From a virus (Duplodnaviria; Heunggongvirae; Uroviricota; Caudoviricetes), in the IMG/VR virus record IMGVR_UViG_2778261458_000009, positions 1 through 19,974 of that record: 19,974 bases of DNA; one strand, 5' to 3'. Positions within the stretch are counted from its first letter, which is position 1. Each line of letters begins with the position of its first letter. Position numbers and translations under genes: made by a program. This document shows, in pieces, positions 2,649 to 14,934 of this stretch. The notes beneath the pieces are model-generated. The model made no database searches, was not told the DNA's origin, and saw nothing but the letters and a program-made list of their open reading frames with translations.

Positions 2649-2984
2649 TTACTCCTTCGAGCTACCAAATTTATTACCGATTACTCGCATTGCAGCCCCA
2701 CGAATAGCATCGACACCGATCAGCCCAACGCCACCACCAATGGCAACAGAAAGCGATTTAGGCCATCCGACATACTCAAGCGCGGATGCAAAAGTCAGCG
2801 TCAGAGCACCACAGAGCAAAATCTCGAGCGTTTTTCGCTTCCAGCCACCACCACCACCAAAATAAGCAATACGCAAACCAGCCATAACGATCGACATAAT
2901 CACTGCGCCAAGAGGCGTATCTCCACGCCACCAGCTCTGGAAAATCTCCAGCCAATCCGGCCATGTGTTTGGATTATGGGGCAT
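2649..2984 (-). CDS. Holin (111 aa, multi-TMD, not lambda S-like)
   Basis: Immediately upstream of the endolysin. Several hydrophobic segments and a charged C-terminus. Position-based call. Confidence 0.7.
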   Translation of the reverse strand: MPHNPNTWPDWLEIFQSWWRGDTPLGAVIMSIVMAGLRIAYFGGGGGWKRKTLEILLCGALTLTFASALEYVGWPKSLSVAIGGGVGLIGVDAIRGAAMRVIGNKFGSSKE

Positions 2985-3064
2985 GAATATCGTCTCTCAC
3001 CTCGTAAGTTATGCAGGCGACATATAAAAAGTTAAATAAAATAGTTGAATCAGATTGAGACATG

Positions 3065-3095
3065 GAAAAGGCTCGCCTGTGCGAGCCTTTTATTT
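3065..3095. terminator. GC-rich hairpin terminator (stem GGCTCGC / GCGAGCC, loop CTGT) flanked by A-run and T-run
   Basis: Perfect 7-bp stem at 3070-3087, TTTTATTT on the plus side and AAAAG on the other. About 70-100 nt downstream of the 429-aa cargo gene stop. Confidence 0.45.
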
Positions 3096-3128
3096 AGGTA
3101 GAGTGTTATAATAAAATCAAATTTACAT

Positions 3129-3153
3129 TATCTTCTTCCAAAAAGAAGATAAT
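3129..3153 (-). terminator. AT-rich hairpin (10-bp stem TTATCTTCTT / AAGAAGATAA, loop CCAAA) directly after the cargo operon stop
   Basis: Perfect inverted repeat read directly. On the minus-strand RNA it is followed by U-rich sequence. Confidence 0.3.
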
Positions 3154-3164
3154 CATCATATCCT

Positions 3165-4454
3165 TCAGAGCTCCTGATAAGCAGGTTGCAATTTTTCACA
3201 CCACTGCCTTAAAGTAGAAGCCCTTCTCTTTATTGTTTTGGAGCTGAGAGATATACATCTATCTTGCAAAAATCGTTCAGCTGTAAGTGGATCGAGCTCA
3301 GAAAGATTTTTAGCTTGACTCCAGGTAATCCACGCCCACCCGCAATGACTTGTTTCAAAACCGCGTGCAGCGATTCTTAGTCTCTTATCATAGTCAGATT
3401 CAACCAATTGCTGACCAAGAGCTGAAACAGAACCATTACTATTTAGTAACCCAAGTATTTTGGCCGCATGAATATAATACAATATATGTCGATTATCCAG
3501 ACCAGTACTAATCAGGTTCAGATGCTTCTCTTGCCATTTTAATTCAACTATCTTAAACACTTGTTCAATTAGGTTAGCCTGCGGTACCTGATAACTACTA
3601 ACAACTTGAGTAGCCATTTTAATCAATGTGCCAGAATAGAACTCAGCATCAGTTTTTCTGACTCTAAGAATAATATCATCAGTCACATTACTTTTTAGTT
3701 CAAAACATGAACTTGTCTCTATCACACTTTCAAATAAAGCAGATAACATCTGAGCATCGATATTATTCTGCTTAACAAAACCAATAATATCTTTTCTTGA
3801 TAGAATCAGATCATTTAGTTTTTTCAGCAATGGTTCAATTTGCTGCATTTTATCTGCCTTGAATGAAAGAACAAATGAACCAGGACGTCCAGATACTGGA
3901 CTCATTACATCTTTTTCATCAAATGCAGCTAATATTGATGAATAGAAATCATTAAAACACTCAAAAAGCTTCGAGACGCCTTTTAAAACCAAGGGTTCCA
4001 CAGAAGTTGCTGTTTTCTCCACATGAATCTCATGCGTAGAGAATTCTACCTCCTTTCCAATTTTACCATTAGGTAATACAGGAAGAACACTACTAATATA
4101 TAAGTTAGGTTCTGGAATTTTTATCTTCTCATTTAACTCAGAAACATTTATTTTTATTTCATCAACATGATTATCTTCATAGTAAATATTAAACTGATAG
4201 CAAAGCTTTTGTTCTTGATAAACTAAAACACTTCTAATATCAATTCTTTTACGCTCGAAGTGCTCCAACCTATCTTTTGAAATCGGTATGATAATCCATT
4301 TATCATAATCTTCTTCGTCGCCAATCCAATAGACAACAAACATGCTATTTATTTCATTAGACACAGAGAAAAGTTTTGGCTCTTCGAAGAACTCATAAAT
4401 TTTTTGCATATATAATGTGCCGAACACACTATCTTCCAAAAAAATATTGCTCAT
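3165..4454 (-). CDS. Hypothetical protein, cargo gene B (429 aa), no recognised domain
   Basis: ATG at 4452-4454 preceded by AAGAGAGGTGG. ATGA overlap with the upstream gene stop. AT-rich (roughly 30-35% GC by eye). Confidence 0.8.
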   Translation of the reverse strand: MSNIFLEDSVFGTLYMQKIYEFFEEPKLFSVSNEINSMFVVYWIGDEEDYDKWIIIPISKDRLEHFERKRIDIRSVLVYQEQKLCYQFNIYYEDNHVDEIKINVSELNEKIKIPEPNLYISSVLPVLPNGKIGKEVEFSTHEIHVEKTATSVEPLVLKGVSKLFECFNDFYSSILAAFDEKDVMSPVSGRPGSFVLSFKADKMQQIEPLLKKLNDLILSRKDIIGFVKQNNIDAQMLSALFESVIETSSCFELKSNVTDDIILRVRKTDAEFYSGTLIKMATQVVSSYQVPQANLIEQVFKIVELKWQEKHLNLISTGLDNRHILYYIHAAKILGLLNSNGSVSALGQQLVESDYDKRLRIAARGFETSHCGWAWITWSQAKNLSELDPLTAERFLQDRCISLSSKTIKRRASTLRQWCEKLQPAYQEL

Positions 4455-10576: not shown

Positions 10577-11721
10577 TTGCGCCCCCTTACCTCTGAAGGG
10601 TTCAGCGACAAATTTATGAGGCAGGCCAGCGCCGAAGCATCATTAATATAGTCATACAAGCTAACAGCCAGCGGAGATTCGTCTTTTGCCAACATAGGAT
10701 AAAGCTGCTGCAGCCAGACCTGATGAATTGATGAAATGTAGGAATAGAGAACGCTGGCGTTATGTGCAACGTCGCTCGGTACAGGGGGTTTTGAAAGCTG
10801 TTTCTCCATCTGGTTAAAGGCATTGATATATGCCTCTTTGAACTGGGCAGCACGTTTACCCGTGAAACCCATAGCAAGAAACGCAAAGCCGTCGCGGGTT
10901 ATTTGATAGCAAGGTAGTTTGCGGCCTGATGCGTCGATGTACTCACTGAGCTGAAAATTCAGCTCAGTAAATTCGGCAGAGCATTCAAGAGACGCAATTT
11001 TTTGAATGACATTTTTGTGTTGTTTGCCGAAATAACTAGCAACAGCCAGAGAAGAAGTAACAACTTTGTCTGCAATAATGCAAAGTTCAGGTTGTACTAA
11101 GGCAGGGATCGTAGCCATGATGGCAGCCTCCGTATGCAATGGATAACTTCCACCACCGGAAACGCCAATTTCGCTGGTGGTGAACTGAGCAGGGTTGGCG
11201 TAACCGGCGCATACGGAAACCGGCGCACCTTTCGGTGCCCCCACCCAGCCCACCATAATTTGGGTATAGCTGAGTTGTAGCAACAAAAAAGACGCTAACG
11301 CGCCAATTGTCGCCGTATGCAATTCCAGGACGCCAATCCCGGCACCCGCTTTATAAGGTGCCTGAACAGTGTAACGTCCCGGAATGGCAGAATCAATGTG
11401 CTGGTGGTCCTTCACACTCAACAAAATCACGCCTGAATTTCCACAAAGGACTAAAGCACTCATGCGGGTAGTCTTTGCGAAGATAGATAACGCGCTGTGT
11501 TTCTGGTTCCCAACGAATAACATGAACATAAAGCCCTCTTCCGTCACGAAACCAGCGGTTAAGTTCCTGCACAACTCGCCCCCCACAGTCAGGTAAAGTT
11601 CTCTGTGGTTACTTACAGCCAGGTGATTTGGTAATCTGCATTCATGCCGTAACAACAGGTGTTCAGAGACGCTGACCACCAGCTGTTGCGACAAACGGTT
11701 ATTTGCCGTTAAACTGTTCAT
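10573..11721 (-). CDS. Rha-domain protein: 382-aa ORF with the Rha domain in the C-terminal 182 aa; a strong internal start at 11116-11118 could give a 182-aa Rha protein
   Basis: …FGKQHKNVIQKI…YQITRDGFAFLAMGFTGKRAAQFKEAYINAFNQM… matches the Rha signature. The 5' ATG at 11719-11721 overlaps the cII-like stop (ATGA). The internal ATG is preceded by GGAGG. Confidence 0.65.
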   Translation of the reverse strand: MNSLTANNRLSQQLVVSVSEHLLLRHECRLPNHLAVSNHRELYLTVGGELCRNLTAGFVTEEGFMFMLFVGNQKHSALSIFAKTTRMSALVLCGNSGVILLSVKDHQHIDSAIPGRYTVQAPYKAGAGIGVLELHTATIGALASFLLLQLSYTQIMVGWVGAPKGAPVSVCAGYANPAQFTTSEIGVSGGGSYPLHTEAAIMATIPALVQPELCIIADKVVTSSLAVASYFGKQHKNVIQKIASLECSAEFTELNFQLSEYIDASGRKLPCYQITRDGFAFLAMGFTGKRAAQFKEAYINAFNQMEKQLSKPPVPSDVAHNASVLYSYISSIHQVWLQQLYPMLAKDESPLAVSLYDYINDASALACLINLSLNPSEVRGRK

Positions 11722-12326
11722 GCGTTAGTTTCTCCACAGACACAAAACGCCACGACGCCCGGAGCTGCACACTCGCGGGCGTCACTCTTTTCTGGAGCGC
11801 AAAAGATTTTGTAGACCAGTGCTGCATGCTCCTGGAGCTTCGAAATTGACAGATACAACTCATCATTAATTGCTGTCTGCTCGTGTGGTTCCACCACCCC
11901 GTCTTCAATTGCTGAACGAATCTGTTTTGAATAACTGCCGATCTGTTCAATGACCTCCAGCAGGCGTTGGTTTATATCGGCGTTCTCTACTTCCTCAATT
12001 TCAGGAAGCGATACAAACACCCCACCAGCAGACTGTGCGACTGCATCCGCAATGTGGTGAGTGCCAGCAGCACGCTGTAAAACCATTGCCCATCCCAGCG
12101 GGAAAATCTGATCGCCATCGGCACGAAGGCGGTTAAATAATGCGTTCTCTGTTACATCCAGCCAGTCAGCAGCTTCAGCGTAACCCCCCGGCAATGCCGC
12201 GATAGTTTTTCTGACAGCTTTCACGTACCACTCAGGCTGTTTTTCTACTTTCCAGTGATGCTTACCCACGGTTAGCCTCATCGTTCTGTGGTTTCTGTTA
12301 ATCGATTTATCCATTAGATTTTTCAT
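11718..12326 (-). CDS. cII-like phage regulatory protein (CP76-type; about 202 aa from Met20; start uncertain)
   Basis: Position directly after cro. Family assignment is from memory and tentative. The ORF-track start at 12383 would overlap cro by 77 nt, so a downstream Met (12326, 12314 or 12281) is more likely. Confidence 0.5.
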   Translation of the reverse strand: MKNLMDKSINRNHRTMRLTVGKHHWKVEKQPEWYVKAVRKTIAALPGGYAEAADWLDVTENALFNRLRADGDQIFPLGWAMVLQRAAGTHHIADAVAQSAGGVFVSLPEIEEVENADINQRLLEVIEQIGSYSKQIRSAIEDGVVEPHEQTAINDELYLSISKLQEHAALVYKIFCAPEKSDARECAAPGVVAFCVCGETNA

Positions 12327-12507
12327 AAAGCTCAGGTTTAAATGGCAACCGTCCGCAAGTTCTATATGCAGCTTCTGCTGCACGTCCTTTTGGAATTAAC
12401 TGGCCCGGACGGTTTCGCCACTGATAAACGGCTTCAGTTGTTATGCCGAAAAAAGCAGCAACTTTCTCAATACTGCCGAAGTAGCTTTCGATATCGTCAG
12501 TTGTCAT
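12307..12507 (-). CDS. Cro-like HTH regulator (66 aa)
   Basis: Divergent from cI. RBS GGAGGG 5-6 nt before the ATG. HTH-like …VAAFFGITTEAVYQWRNR…. Confidence 0.75.
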   Translation of the reverse strand: MTTDDIESYFGSIEKVAAFFGITTEAVYQWRNRPGQLIPKGRAAEAAYRTCGRLPFKPELYEKSNG

Positions 12508-12604
12508 ACGCCCTCCAAACTAAGTTTTATTAGATGCTAATTACAAATCTATCTTTGGTCAATAAAAACTAAGATTACTTAGCAATTCAAGAAATGGTGC
12601 TCCT
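12508..12604. promoter_or_regulatory. OR-like operator/promoter region between cro and cI
   Basis: Perfect 14-bp palindrome CTAAGATTACTTAG (12569-12582) and related CTAAGTTTTATTAG (12520-12533). Minus-strand -35 TTGACC (12557-12562) and -10 TAGCAT (12534-12539), spacer 17, with the second operator over the -10/start. Confidence 0.6.
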
Positions 12605-13231
12605 ATGGAAACGGTTGGTCAGCGTATAAAAGCTCTGAGAAGAGTTACCAGAACGTCCCAGAAAGAATTGGGTAAATTTTGTGGAGTAAGCGACGTTGCT
12701 GTGGGGTACTGGGAGAAAGACATCAATACCCCTGGTGGGGAGGCACTTTCGAAATTAGCGAAGTTCTTCAATACGTCAATAGATTACATTCTTTATGGTG
12801 CTGAGTTTGAAGGCAAACTCGTCACAAACATGCGCAGAGTTCCTGTAATATCGTGGGTTCAGGCTGGGCAGTTTACTGAGTGCAGGGCAGCAGAAGTGTT
12901 TAGTGAAGTGGACAAGTGGGTAGATACATCATTAAAGATTGGTGATAACTCATTTGCATTAGAGGTTAAAGGTGACTCCATGACTAACCCTAATGGCCTC
13001 CCAACAATACCAGAAGGCGCAACAGTGATTGTAGATCCAGATGCAGAACCTCGTCATGGAAAAATAGTCATCGCTCGACTTGATGGAACAAACGAAGCTA
13101 CAGTAAAAAAATTAGTCATCGATGGCCCTCAAAAGTTTTTAGTGCCATTAAATCCTCGGTATCCCAACATCCCTATCAATGGTAATTGCCTTATCATTGG
13201 TGTAGTCAAAGGAGTTCAATACGAACTCTAA
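12605..13231 (+). CDS. CI-like repressor, HTH plus S24 LexA-like peptidase domain (208 aa)
   Basis: N-terminal HTH (…QKELGKFCGVSDVAVGYWEKD…), Ala-Gly cleavage-type site (VQAGQF), catalytic Ser in GDSM and Lys in KKLV. Confidence 0.9.
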   Translation: METVGQRIKALRRVTRTSQKELGKFCGVSDVAVGYWEKDINTPGGEALSKLAKFFNTSIDYILYGAEFEGKLVTNMRRVPVISWVQAGQFTECRAAEVFSEVDKWVDTSLKIGDNSFALEVKGDSMTNPNGLPTIPEGATVIVDPDAEPRHGKIVIARLDGTNEATVKKLVIDGPQKFLVPLNPRYPNIPINGNCLIIGVVKGVQYEL

Positions 13232-13284
13232 GACCTCTCTTCTCTAACTAAGGCACCGAACTAAGAAAAGTTTGGTGTTTTCTC

Positions 13285-13313
13285 TTGCCATAATAACTAA
13301 GTTAAGTTAGATT
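13285..13313 (+). promoter_or_regulatory. Putative pL-like promoter with OL-type operator
   Basis: -35 TTGCCA (13285-13290), 17-nt spacer, -10 TAGATT (13308-13313). Operator-like CTAAGTTAAGTTAG (13297-13310) lies in the spacer; further CTAAG copies at 13248-13252 and 13261-13265. Confidence 0.4.
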
Positions 13314-13421
13314 TTATATCAAAGATAACGAACAGGCAGGACGCCCACGAAGTAGCCGCCGGTGGCGTATGAATGACCGGATGATTCGTTAGCAACAAAA
13401 AAAGCGCCCTATAGGACGCTT

Positions 13422-13434
13422 CGCTCTTTAACAA
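13422..13434 (+). promoter_or_regulatory. boxA-like element CGCTCTTTAACAA (candidate nut-site boxA)
   Basis: GCTCTTTAACAA matches the rrn/nut boxA core as I recall it, about 100 nt downstream of the putative pL. No convincing boxB hairpin or N-like protein found. Confidence 0.4.
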
Positions 13435-13465
13435 TCCTGGTATCCCCGTAACAAAAGAGGGTTCT

Positions 13466-13759
13466 ATGGTCATATTCTGTGCTTACGTTCATCCTAATGG
13501 ATTTTTTATCAGCACCAACCAACAAGACGAATTCTGGATTCTACTTAGTAAGCAGGTCGGATGGGGACGATTCTGTCTAATCCGACCAGAATCAGAATTT
13601 ACAGAGAATGGAGGGCTTTTTGAATTACGTGAAATACGTCCGGCAGATGGTCAAGCCCCTGACCAAGTAATCGAATCGTCAGCTGTTTTATGGCGTCGGC
13701 AGGAAGCGTTCGAAGCTGAGAGAGTAATTTCTTCTTATCTTCAGTCGTGGCAGAAGTAG
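13466..13759 (+). CDS. Hypothetical protein (97 aa)
   Basis: RBS AGAGGG 5 nt before the ATG. Its 3' 161 nt overlap the convergent 167-aa ORF, so one of the two may be spurious. Confidence 0.4.
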   Translation: MVIFCAYVHPNGFFISTNQQDEFWILLSKQVGWGRFCLIRPESEFTENGGLFELREIRPADGQAPDQVIESSAVLWRRQEAFEAERVISSYLQSWQK

Positions 13760-14102
13760 AACTATTGATGATACGTTCAAGTTCACAGAGAGTCTCATCA
13801 TGCAATCTTATTGTCATAATCCCAAGAATAGCTTTAAGACCTCCATCATCACGAATGAAATCAATTCCATCTTTAGTAATTCTTAATTCAGGAATATTTA
13901 TATTTATGCCATCCAAGTAATAATCAAGAGCATTCTTAATCAAGCCATGTTCTTCGAGATAAATTAAGTTCGAAATTAGGACATTATCATCTCCAAATGC
14001 GTCACGAACAGACTGCAACGCATCATCAGAAATTTCATAAGGATGAGCATCATACAGTATTTGTAACAACTGCCTTTGTGCACTTCTATCAAATTTGTCC
14101 AT
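13599..14102 (-). CDS. Hypothetical protein (167 aa), AT-rich accessory gene convergent with cI
   Basis: ATG at 14100-14102 with GGTGA about 9 nt upstream. 5' two-thirds markedly AT-rich by eye. No family recognised. Confidence 0.55.
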   Translation of the reverse strand: MDKFDRSAQRQLLQILYDAHPYEISDDALQSVRDAFGDDNVLISNLIYLEEHGLIKNALDYYLDGININIPELRITKDGIDFIRDDGGLKAILGIMTIRLHDETLCELERIINSSTSATTEDKKKLLSQLRTLPADAIKQLTIRLLGQGLDHLPDVFHVIQKALHSL

Positions 14103-14571
14103 CTTAAATAATCACCATGTTATTGGGGTTATCAAGATTAACCGAATCCTTGTTGTTGGGGAATAACCAGGTCCACCTCGCCTGATGTGGCTAAAAGCAG
14201 GCACATAACAGCTAAGTATTTTCAACCAGAGAGAATCCTTAGCGTTGTGGTGAATGCGGCTCAGCGCACGCGGGTTAAGGTTGAGGCTGACAGTCGACCT
14301 TCTGTGGATACCCACCCGTCTGGTGTGCAACCTTCGCCAGGCACCGGGAGGCACCCGGCACCACAACTTTATGCTGTGTGTAGTCCTGGCGGTACCAGTT
14401 TGTACCCTTGCTTCCGGCTGGTACCGTCCTTTTTACAAAACAGAGAAGAGCATCACCGGACGACGGGCTCATAACCCAATCCATCCTGGCGGCTGCCACC
14501 GCAGGTGTTCTTCTCTGTTTTGTGGAGAAACTAATCGGCCTTGCAGGGTCGATATGATGAGGAGCAGCAAA

Positions 14572-14934
14572 ATGGCTAGCGAACGCAGTACTGATGTGCA
14601 GGCATTTATCGGGGAGCTGGACGGCGGCGTATTTGAAACCAAAATCGGCGCAGTTCTCAGTGAAGTCGCTTCCGGTGTGATGAACACGAAAACCAAAGGT
14701 AAGGTCTCACTCAACCTGGAAATCGAACCATTTGATGAGAACCGTGTGAAAATCAAACACAAACTCTCATATGTTCGCCCGACTAACCGCGGGAAAATTT
14801 CCGAAGAAGACACCACCGAAACGCCGATGTATGTCAATCGCGGTGGTCGCCTGACTATTCTGCAGGAAGACCAGGGACAGTTACTGACTCTTGCCGGTGA
14901 ACCTGACGGAAAACTCCGCGCAGCAGGTCGTTAA
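14572..14934 (+). CDS. Hypothetical early-left protein (120 aa), YfdP-like by size and position
   Basis: Strong RBS GAGGAG 7 nt before the ATG at 14572. The ORF-track 226-aa version has an implausible Arg-rich N-terminal extension. Confidence 0.7.
   Translation: MASERSTDVQAFIGELDGGVFETKIGAVLSEVASGVMNTKTKGKVSLNLEIEPFDENRVKIKHKLSYVRPTNRGKISEEDTTETPMYVNRGGRLTILQEDQGQLLTLAGEPDGKLRAAGR

Follow-up and report, generated by a model that had tools for sequence, protein, structure and literature searches.

Two Convergent Genes Share 161 Nucleotides beside a Prophage Repressor

The stretch of DNA analysed here (19,974 nucleotides (nt) of the Caudoviricetes record IMGVR_UViG_2778261458_000009 in IMG/VR, hereafter the window) comes from a lambdoid prophage of Escherichia coli of the SfV/SfIV/ST64B type. 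Next to its cI repressor gene lie two open reading frames (ORFs) on opposite strands that converge and overlap at their 3' ends. The minus-strand ORF encodes 167 amino acids (aa) and the plus-strand ORF 97 aa, and we refer to the two genes and their products as big and small. The ORF coordinates (Table 1) confirmed both ORFs and the 161-nt overlap described in the original prediction, a note made from the window's letters before this analysis, as well as the convergence of big with cI, which is read from the plus strand. The good ribosome-binding site (RBS) that had been ascribed to the 97-aa ORF was also found, as a Shine-Dalgarno (SD)-like motif at the appropriate place. RefSeq annotates only the minus-strand gene at this locus, under the label "hypothetical protein".

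Within the overlap, the first codon positions of the two genes pair with each other, and the second position in either gene pairs with the third in the other. The part of big that codes on one strand only (13760-14102) has a GC content of 33.8%, compared with 46.6% for the overlap and 46.0% for the window. The AT-rich 5' two-thirds of big that had been noted before is therefore exactly the single-coding part, sharply bounded by the step in base composition at the overlap border.

Table 1: Features of the cassette and its surroundings, in window coordinates.
Feature	Position	Strand	Basis or remark
small gene, 97 aa, ATG start	13466-13759	+	ORF list; absent from the RefSeq/GenBank records inspected
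big gene, 167 aa, ATG start	13599-14102	-	ORF list; RefSeq WP_000357060.1
Dual-coding overlap, 161 nt, 53 sense codons per gene	13599-13759	both	ORF coordinates
SD-like AAGAGGG of small	13455-13461	+	First bases of the cassette; GAGGG at 13457-13461, 4 nt ahead of the ATG
Exchangeable cassette	13455-14118	both	BLASTN of the window against phage vB_EcoM-689R6; left junction 13454/13455
Predicted pL with operator (CTAAGTTAAGTTAG, 13297-13310)	13285-13313	+	Promoter scan; sigma-70-like TTGCCA-17-TAGATT
Predicted intrinsic terminator of the big transcript, 9-base-pair stem and T-run	13422-13401	-	Terminator scan; poor if read on the plus strand
Promoter-like TTGATA-16-GATTAT, upstream of big	14135-14108	-	Promoter scan; consensus-level prediction
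GTTAATC element, upstream of big	14142-14136	-	Upstream region 14108-14161
Direct repeats CCCCAAYAACA (CCCCAATAACA, CCCCAACAACA)	14118-14128, 14151-14161	-	33 nt apart; bracket the big promoter region
cI, LexA-type repressor	12605-13231	+	Peptidase_S24 and HTH_3 domains
cro	12307-12507	-	Left of the cassette
CII/YmfL-like gene	11718-12383	-	Left of the cassette

Both Strands Encode Conserved Proteins

Loci around homologs of big were collected from genomes (23 loci) and from IMG/VR (80 loci, with more than 500 contigs matched), the others being found by exact protein look-up. A homolog of small was present in 93 of the ~110 loci that carry big (70 unique modules), from Enterobacterales to Burkholderiales. 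In all homologous modules it converges with big in the identical codon phase, with an overlap of 152-218 nt, and it is often as well conserved as big; at one locus (L097), for instance, small and big are respectively 50% and 39% identical to the window proteins. SD-like motifs (GGAGG-, GGGGG- or GAGG-like), mostly combined with an ATG start, precede small in most of its 64 unique homologs. The conserved ATG and SD motif support translation only indirectly.

Selection could be measured cleanly in each frame, since each gene has a part outside the overlap. For codons 1-44 of small, the ratio of nonsynonymous to synonymous differences per site (pN/pS) was 0.03-0.08 at moderate divergence (pS 0.27-0.61), in two of the three bins below saturation, the closest-pair bin having too few substitutions. 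The corresponding values for big outside the overlap were 0.05, 0.40 and 0.06 in three bins below saturation. In its non-overlapping part, small showed 737, 698 and 3330 differences among homologs at codon positions 1, 2 and 3, a periodicity that, with the low pN/pS, an untranslated region (UTR) or a non-coding RNA would not yield.

The overlap itself gave several further lines of evidence. Not one stop was found in the small frame among 2,138 overlap codons from 38 representatives, as against 3.46 stops per 53 codons in the same antisense phase just past the small stop and 2.1-3.5 in the other two antisense phases. When codons were resampled with the big protein held fixed, the small frame remained open with P = 0.0006-0.15 in 17 lineages of less than 60% identity, and in 0.34% of trials on the window sequence. 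Every lineage pointed in the same direction and the log10 P values summed to -32, a sum that overstates the significance because the lineages are not fully independent. Synonymous divergence of big was 0.27-0.41 outside the overlap and 0.04-0.13, or 3-7 times lower, within it, as expected under dual constraint. Changes within the overlap numbered 744, 1262 and 644 at positions 1, 2 and 3 of small, whose position 2 is position 3 of big. By these comparative measures the overlap is far beyond chance, and each frame is a conserved protein gene on which purifying selection acts, neither being mis-called. Of the two options that had been raised for the locus, a genuine overlap thus stands and a mis-called ORF does not.

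A New Protein Family Paired with an Acidic Winged-Helix Protein

Judged by its sequence, small belongs to a previously undescribed and unannotated protein family. Nothing useful was found for it in Pfam, PHROGs, PADLOC, NCBIfam or the PDB sequence profiles, and the family has only about 50 called proteins among 5.8 billion. Hidden Markov model (HMM) searches detected unannotated homologs in E. coli phage PhiR49_2, in Edwardsiella phage GF-2 and, more diverged, in a Pseudomonas phage. The predicted structure, built on a 36-sequence alignment of database proteins, consists of five beta-strands and a C-terminal helix, and no known fold matched the model. No transmembrane segment was seen (maximum Kyte-Doolittle value over 19 residues, 0.71). 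The invariant residues V74, L75 and A81 and the near-invariant W76 all fall within the overlap, which also encodes the predicted strand 49-59 and helix 78-96, so that the overlapped part is integral to the protein.

A homology and structure search, suggested in the original prediction as a check on the 167-aa protein, placed big in PHROG 3983, a phage protein family without an assigned function (E = 2.6e-59; residues 1-165 on profile positions 1-164 of 165). No Pfam family was matched at E<=0.01, nor any NCBIfam or PADLOC model; the best hit in PADLOC-DB v2.0.0, CARF_m5 at E = 0.013 (13.5 bits), was counted as no defence-system match. Among 25 family members compared with Pfam, sub-threshold matches to YjcQ occurred in six and to DUF2513 in three. 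The note had proposed that a single translated strand, with a product matching a housekeeping or structural phage family, would speak against its reading; what we found were two conserved frames, with PHROG 3983 as the only family matched by big. A profile search of 1.84 billion representatives (clusters at 50% identity) returned 1,135 clusters at E<=1e-3, and nearly all of the 150 best-scoring ones are 150-210 aa long.

Thirty big homologs (35-99% identity) could be aligned without large gaps. The AlphaFold model of big (predicted local distance difference test score, pLDDT, 77) has a winged helix at residues ~6-84 followed by three to four helices, and we take the modelled winged-helix fold of the N-terminus as correct. 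The motif GxDFxxDDGGL, located after the wing, is invariant among the homologs, and the C-terminal sequence LPADAIKHLT...LPDAFHxIQ is conserved; no match was found for the C-terminal helical domain. The protein carries a net charge of -9 overall and -10 in the winged-helix domain (family median, -7), and its putative recognition helix (39-56) contains one basic and three acidic residues. Like small, big is without a transmembrane segment (maximum Kyte-Doolittle value over 19 residues, 0.83). We considered a leaderless big mRNA, as GATTAT lies 5 nt ahead of the ATG in the window, and dropped the idea, many homologs having an ordinary SD motif.

Transcription Signals Place the Two Genes on Opposing Transcripts

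Promoters, terminators and operators were predicted at consensus level. The palindrome CTAAG-N4-CTTAG occurs twice in the cI-cro intergenic region (12520-12533 and 12569-12582) and a third time overlapping the -10 element of the predicted pL promoter. Three copies in the window compare with 0.49 expected, and only one of 200 shuffles reached three; these copies are likely the cI operators oR and oL. The Mangrovibacter prophage L007 has a similar promoter-like site (TTGACC-17-TAGATT) at the same position after cI. The predicted pL promoter and its oR-type palindrome support a reading in which small is the first ORF of the predicted pL transcript and big is antisense to that transcript, as had been presumed. 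No promoter for small can lie in the cassette, because the left junction is only 11 nt ahead of its ATG.

The position had also been likened to the rex/sieB slot. The rex part of this comparison is imprecise: since the predicted pL and oL lie between cI and the cassette, the cassette is not in the rex position, which is cotranscribed with cI. It comes first in the pL operon, at a place closer to that of N or sieB, and the slot is variable, related phages carrying other convergent ORF pairs there.

On the minus strand, the predicted terminator of big is placed 44 nt past the start codon of small and forms a stable hairpin in the minus-strand RNA fold. Roughly half of 38 representative loci have a terminator-like hairpin within ~100 nt past the start of small, and Mangrovibacter L007 has the same hairpin as the window. 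Ending at the predicted terminator, the big mRNA would be complementary to small over its whole ORF and the RBS; this anatomy makes the antisense regulation envisaged in the original prediction plausible. An Rfam match to the Phe leader over this terminator was rejected as noise. An element of the form [GC]TTA(A)AT, which reads GTTAATC upstream of big in the window, occupies -45 to -34 in 9 of 38 representatives; shuffles contain it in 3.7%. Loci in Salmonella, Proteus and Xenorhabdus have direct repeats of other sequence with the same 33-34-nt spacing, 14-17 nt from the ATG.

The orientation of neighbouring genes fits the same picture. In 51 of 55 distinct contexts, small and the gene upstream of it point the same way, and in 43 of 55 both flanking genes lie on the small strand, which indicates that big is typically antisense inside a unidirectional phage operon along which small is read.

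The Pair Moves as a Cassette

Comparison with phage vB_EcoM-689R6 showed 94-97.5% identity in the flanks (13200-13454 and 14119-14600), with the DNA in between replaced. In the same slot (3230-3842 of locus L001), 689R6 has convergent ORFs of 68 aa (plus strand) and 144 aa (minus strand) with a 29-nt overlap, and SfV (3091-3550 of L002) has orf33, a plus-strand gene of 98 aa overlapped over 83 nt by an unannotated minus-strand ORF of 81 aa. None of these 689R6 and SfV slot proteins matched Pfam or PADLOC.

The big/small pair itself was found beside cI in the window, in Mangrovibacter L007, in the metagenomic locus L119 and in Proteus L010, and directly past cro and ahead of cII in Paraburkholderia (L114). 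Elsewhere it follows Q antiterminators of two families (PF03589 and PF06530 contexts) ahead of a holin, is flanked by an HNH gene and the small terminase, or is found within a tail operon (L118). In phage PhiR49_2 it is placed between Rz and the terminase, in phage GF-2 after the gene for an Arc-like regulator (Arc DNA-binding domain), and in Salmonella in a Cox/Ash-type region. On this distribution of sequences, the pair is a mobile moron cassette, which in gamma- and betaproteobacterial prophages moves as a unit from one position to another, unrelated one.

In the prophage of Proteus sp. G2658 (L010), a BstA_C-domain gene (2840-3745) separates the cI-like repressor from the cassette, an observation that is suggestive and not evidence. 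We take BstA to be a prophage abortive-infection protein, in which case the cassette of L010 would share a defence-type hot spot.

Prophage Setting and Neighbouring RNA Elements

Rightward of the cassette follow yfdP, yfdQ (DUF2303) and yfdR, all on the plus strand. The DNA flanking the cassette is present in 2,813 of 5,426 complete E. coli genomes, and the whole stretch 13250-14560 in 76 of them at ~98% identity.

An Rfam scan of the window gave no family inside the cassette, and gathering-level matches only elsewhere. Between the cassette and yfdP, a conserved, GC-rich (~55%) non-coding stretch at 14214-14436 (plus strand) matched the STnc100 model (RF02076) over its full length with 41.2 bits (E = 3.5e-7), not reaching the gathering score of 47. 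The pL transcript would include it directly after the cassette. A 2026 preprint (10.64898/2026.05.13.724894) relates STnc100 to the PasD prophage small RNAs. A mechanical 226-aa ORF (14254-14934, plus strand) crosses this region in frame into yfdP and is probably non-coding; one RefSeq genome has a frameshifted pseudogene annotated at its site. The gathering-level matches were to C4 antisense RNA (11173-11260, minus strand, 80.7 bits) and isrK (11285-11361, minus strand, 61.2 bits), both falling within a mechanical ORF of 382 aa. This region resembles a c4-ant immunity module of the P1/P7 type, which would be a second immunity system of the prophage.

Possible Roles of the Cassette

The anatomy of the locus suggests that big is a product of the prophage state and that small is made from lytic transcripts. 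The explanation that we favour, with confidence and doubt in about equal measure, is a dual-coding convergent cassette with mutually exclusive expression, in which small is possibly a partner or an antagonist of big. In the lysogen, big would be transcribed from a promoter of its own that opposes lytic transcription, and the transcript would stop at the terminator just past the small start codon. The small protein would be translated from lytic transcripts that cross the cassette, from pL in the window and from pR or as part of a Q-dependent late transcript elsewhere. Expression would be mutually exclusive because the two RNAs would be complementary along the whole small ORF with its RBS and because the polymerases would converge: in the prophage state big would be on and small silenced, and lytic transcription would turn small on and shut big off. 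The most speculative step makes small a partner or antagonist of big and so an off-switch for a prophage-expressed factor, possibly one of exclusion or defence; a defence role of the cassette is likewise speculative.

A more specific version, which we regard as unlikely, would have one strand encode a lysogen-expressed effector (big as an acidic winged-helix exclusion or defence factor) and the complementary strand its antidote. Once the resident phage began lytic transcription, the effector would in that case be shut down at the level of RNA as well as of protein. Inheritance or mutation of either gene would always involve the other, and the convergent pairs of 689R6 and SfV would be further cases of the same design. 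An effector with a built-in antidote would constitute a new design principle for prophage morons and defence cassettes.

Several observations weigh against such a coupling of the two genes. One is that big occurs alone in Kluyvera and in more distant lineages (Lysobacter, Janthinobacterium, Moraxella, Snodgrassella and others). The loci without a recognisable small (L012/L044 from Kluyvera cryocrescens, L019-L021, L023-L025, L027, L028, L031-L033 and L104) are mostly non-enterobacterial (Xanthomonadales, Betaproteobacteria, Moraxella), with the Silvania locus L021 being enterobacterial and L104 an unplaced viral contig. In K. cryocrescens, ~400 nt of ORF-free DNA lie downstream of big. At these loci small may have been lost, or it may have arisen later, in other lineages, by extension into big; as big occurs alone, small is not required for its existence. 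Either partner may also be disrupted, with a broken big beside an intact small at L022, L029, L030 and L115 and a broken small beside an intact big at L049 and L012, which weakens both strict mutual dependence and a strict toxin-antidote model. Within the overlap, the C-terminal part of small appears less constrained than big, the changes falling mostly at position 2 of small. Finally, a role of big as a DNA-binding repressor is doubtful, given its acidity and the one basic residue in its putative recognition helix. We considered the CCCCAAYAACA repeats as a candidate operator of big, their spacing being kept in four lineages, but this acidity speaks against it, and so does the location of the repeats in backbone DNA common to a phage with another cassette.

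Some of these points would be expected if big and small were two functionally independent genes whose overlap is a frozen accident of genome compaction, for example through loss of a stop codon that extended small into big. The presence of big alone in distant lineages, the variable length of the C-terminal tail of small (hence the range of overlap lengths) and the greater tolerance of small to change within the overlap would all fit. An accident would hardly account for a pair kept together across many unrelated insertion contexts, down to ~33% identity, with an invariant phase and a frame held open against the resampling expectation in lineage after lineage, or for invariant residues and predicted structural elements of small lying in the overlapped part; we judge independence improbable, if worth keeping in view. 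We find it very hard to believe, and strongly disfavour, that the 97-aa ORF is untranslated and that the conserved item is the 3' UTR or terminator of the big mRNA or an antisense RNA. Such an account would explain why the records inspected annotate the minus-strand gene only and why so few family proteins have been called, and the minus-strand RNA at 13380-13600 does fold somewhat better than shuffles (z = -2.6). The three-base periodicity and low pN/pS of small outside the overlap, its conserved ATG and SD motif and the complete lack of stops in the overlap argue strongly for a translated gene.

A toxin-antitoxin (TA) or abortive-infection module would be another way of making sense of two small genes that move as a pair in prophage moron and defence hot spots. 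One protein, small or big, would be toxic and the other would neutralise it, with antisense RNA control added, and the module would stabilise the prophage or kill infected cells. The BstA_C-domain gene beside the Proteus cassette, convergent 3'-overlapping transcripts of the kind found at prophage type I TA loci, and a fold of small that could not be assigned and might belong to a new effector are in line with this proposal. Given the loci at which one partner is broken and the other intact, we consider it distinctly unlikely.

Comparison with Known Systems

Where protein genes of bacteria or phages overlap antisense over a long stretch, the overlap is usually put down to faulty annotation, and we know of few such cases with strong comparative support. 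Here an overlap of ~53 codons has been kept in one phase across prophages of Gamma- and Betaproteobacteria, and the 97-aa gene adds an unannotated family to the phage repertoire, absent from the profile databases searched and from every RefSeq/GenBank record inspected. Lysogens of E. coli offer a tractable system in which to ask how dual coding constrains evolution and whether phages use convergent overlap to couple genes of the prophage and lytic states. Our literature search returned no description of this pair.

Antisense overlapping genes have been reported in enterohaemorrhagic E. coli (PMC9927249). As in the described cases in bacteria, the cassette encodes two proteins on opposite strands, the shorter of which is missed by annotation pipelines, and both of its frames are open beyond the constraint of the other and under purifying selection. 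The described overlaps mostly involve young ORFs of narrow taxonomic range nested in a longer gene, whereas that of the cassette is partial and tail-to-tail, each gene has a non-overlapping domain of its own, and conservation extends across orders and classes. The pair thus stands out among reported antisense-overlapping protein genes by the breadth of its conservation and by measurable selection in both frames.

As to the fold, big shares with the MarR, YjcQ (PF09639) and DUF2513 (PF10711) proteins a predicted winged helix, but lacks sequence membership in these families at threshold. It further departs from them in its strongly acidic domain, in the invariant motif that follows the wing and in a C-terminal helical domain that remained unmatched.

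Prophage exclusion genes near the repressor are exemplified by sieB-esc of P22 and lambda and by rexAB of lambda, where SieB and RexB are membrane proteins. At sieB-esc, a second product of the same DNA, Esc, protects the phage against its own exclusion factor, and this product is internal, in frame and on the same strand. The cassette would resemble these systems as a set of accessory genes in the immunity or early-left region with expression in the prophage, and the logic of sieB-esc is the one proposed for it. It differs in having no sequence or profile similarity to them, no hydrophobic segment and an antisense gene, and in not being tied to the immunity region; profile searches and hydropathy of both proteins revealed neither homology to RexA, RexB or SieB nor a membrane component.

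With the type I TA loci of prophages (txpA/RatA and bsrG/SR4, and also par of pAD1), in which a non-coding RNA is the antitoxin of a small hydrophobic peptide, the cassette has in common its tail-to-tail arrangement, its prophage location, a shared or adjacent terminator and RNAs that are complementary over more than 100 nt, as predicted here. Unlike them, it encodes conserved soluble proteins of 97 and 167 aa on its two strands. We found no small hydrophobic or membrane toxin and, with both strands under selection, no non-coding antitoxin RNA; nor did we find the co-directional bicistronic operon with a recognisable toxin or antitoxin fold that marks type II systems. Among the described TA and defence families compared, none includes the pair.

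Convergent or antisense transcription is also used in the switches of lambda (oop/cII), P22 (sar/ant) and coliphage 186 (pR/pL), which rely on non-coding RNAs or head-to-head promoters. In these switches, as we infer for the cassette, such transcription ties a product of the lysogenic state to lytic transcription. To our knowledge, none of them has two protein genes that share 53 codons. By analogy, then, the cassette would work most like the antisense-coupled phage modules, oop/cII, sar/ant and the type I TA loci of prophages, but with both strands coding for protein.

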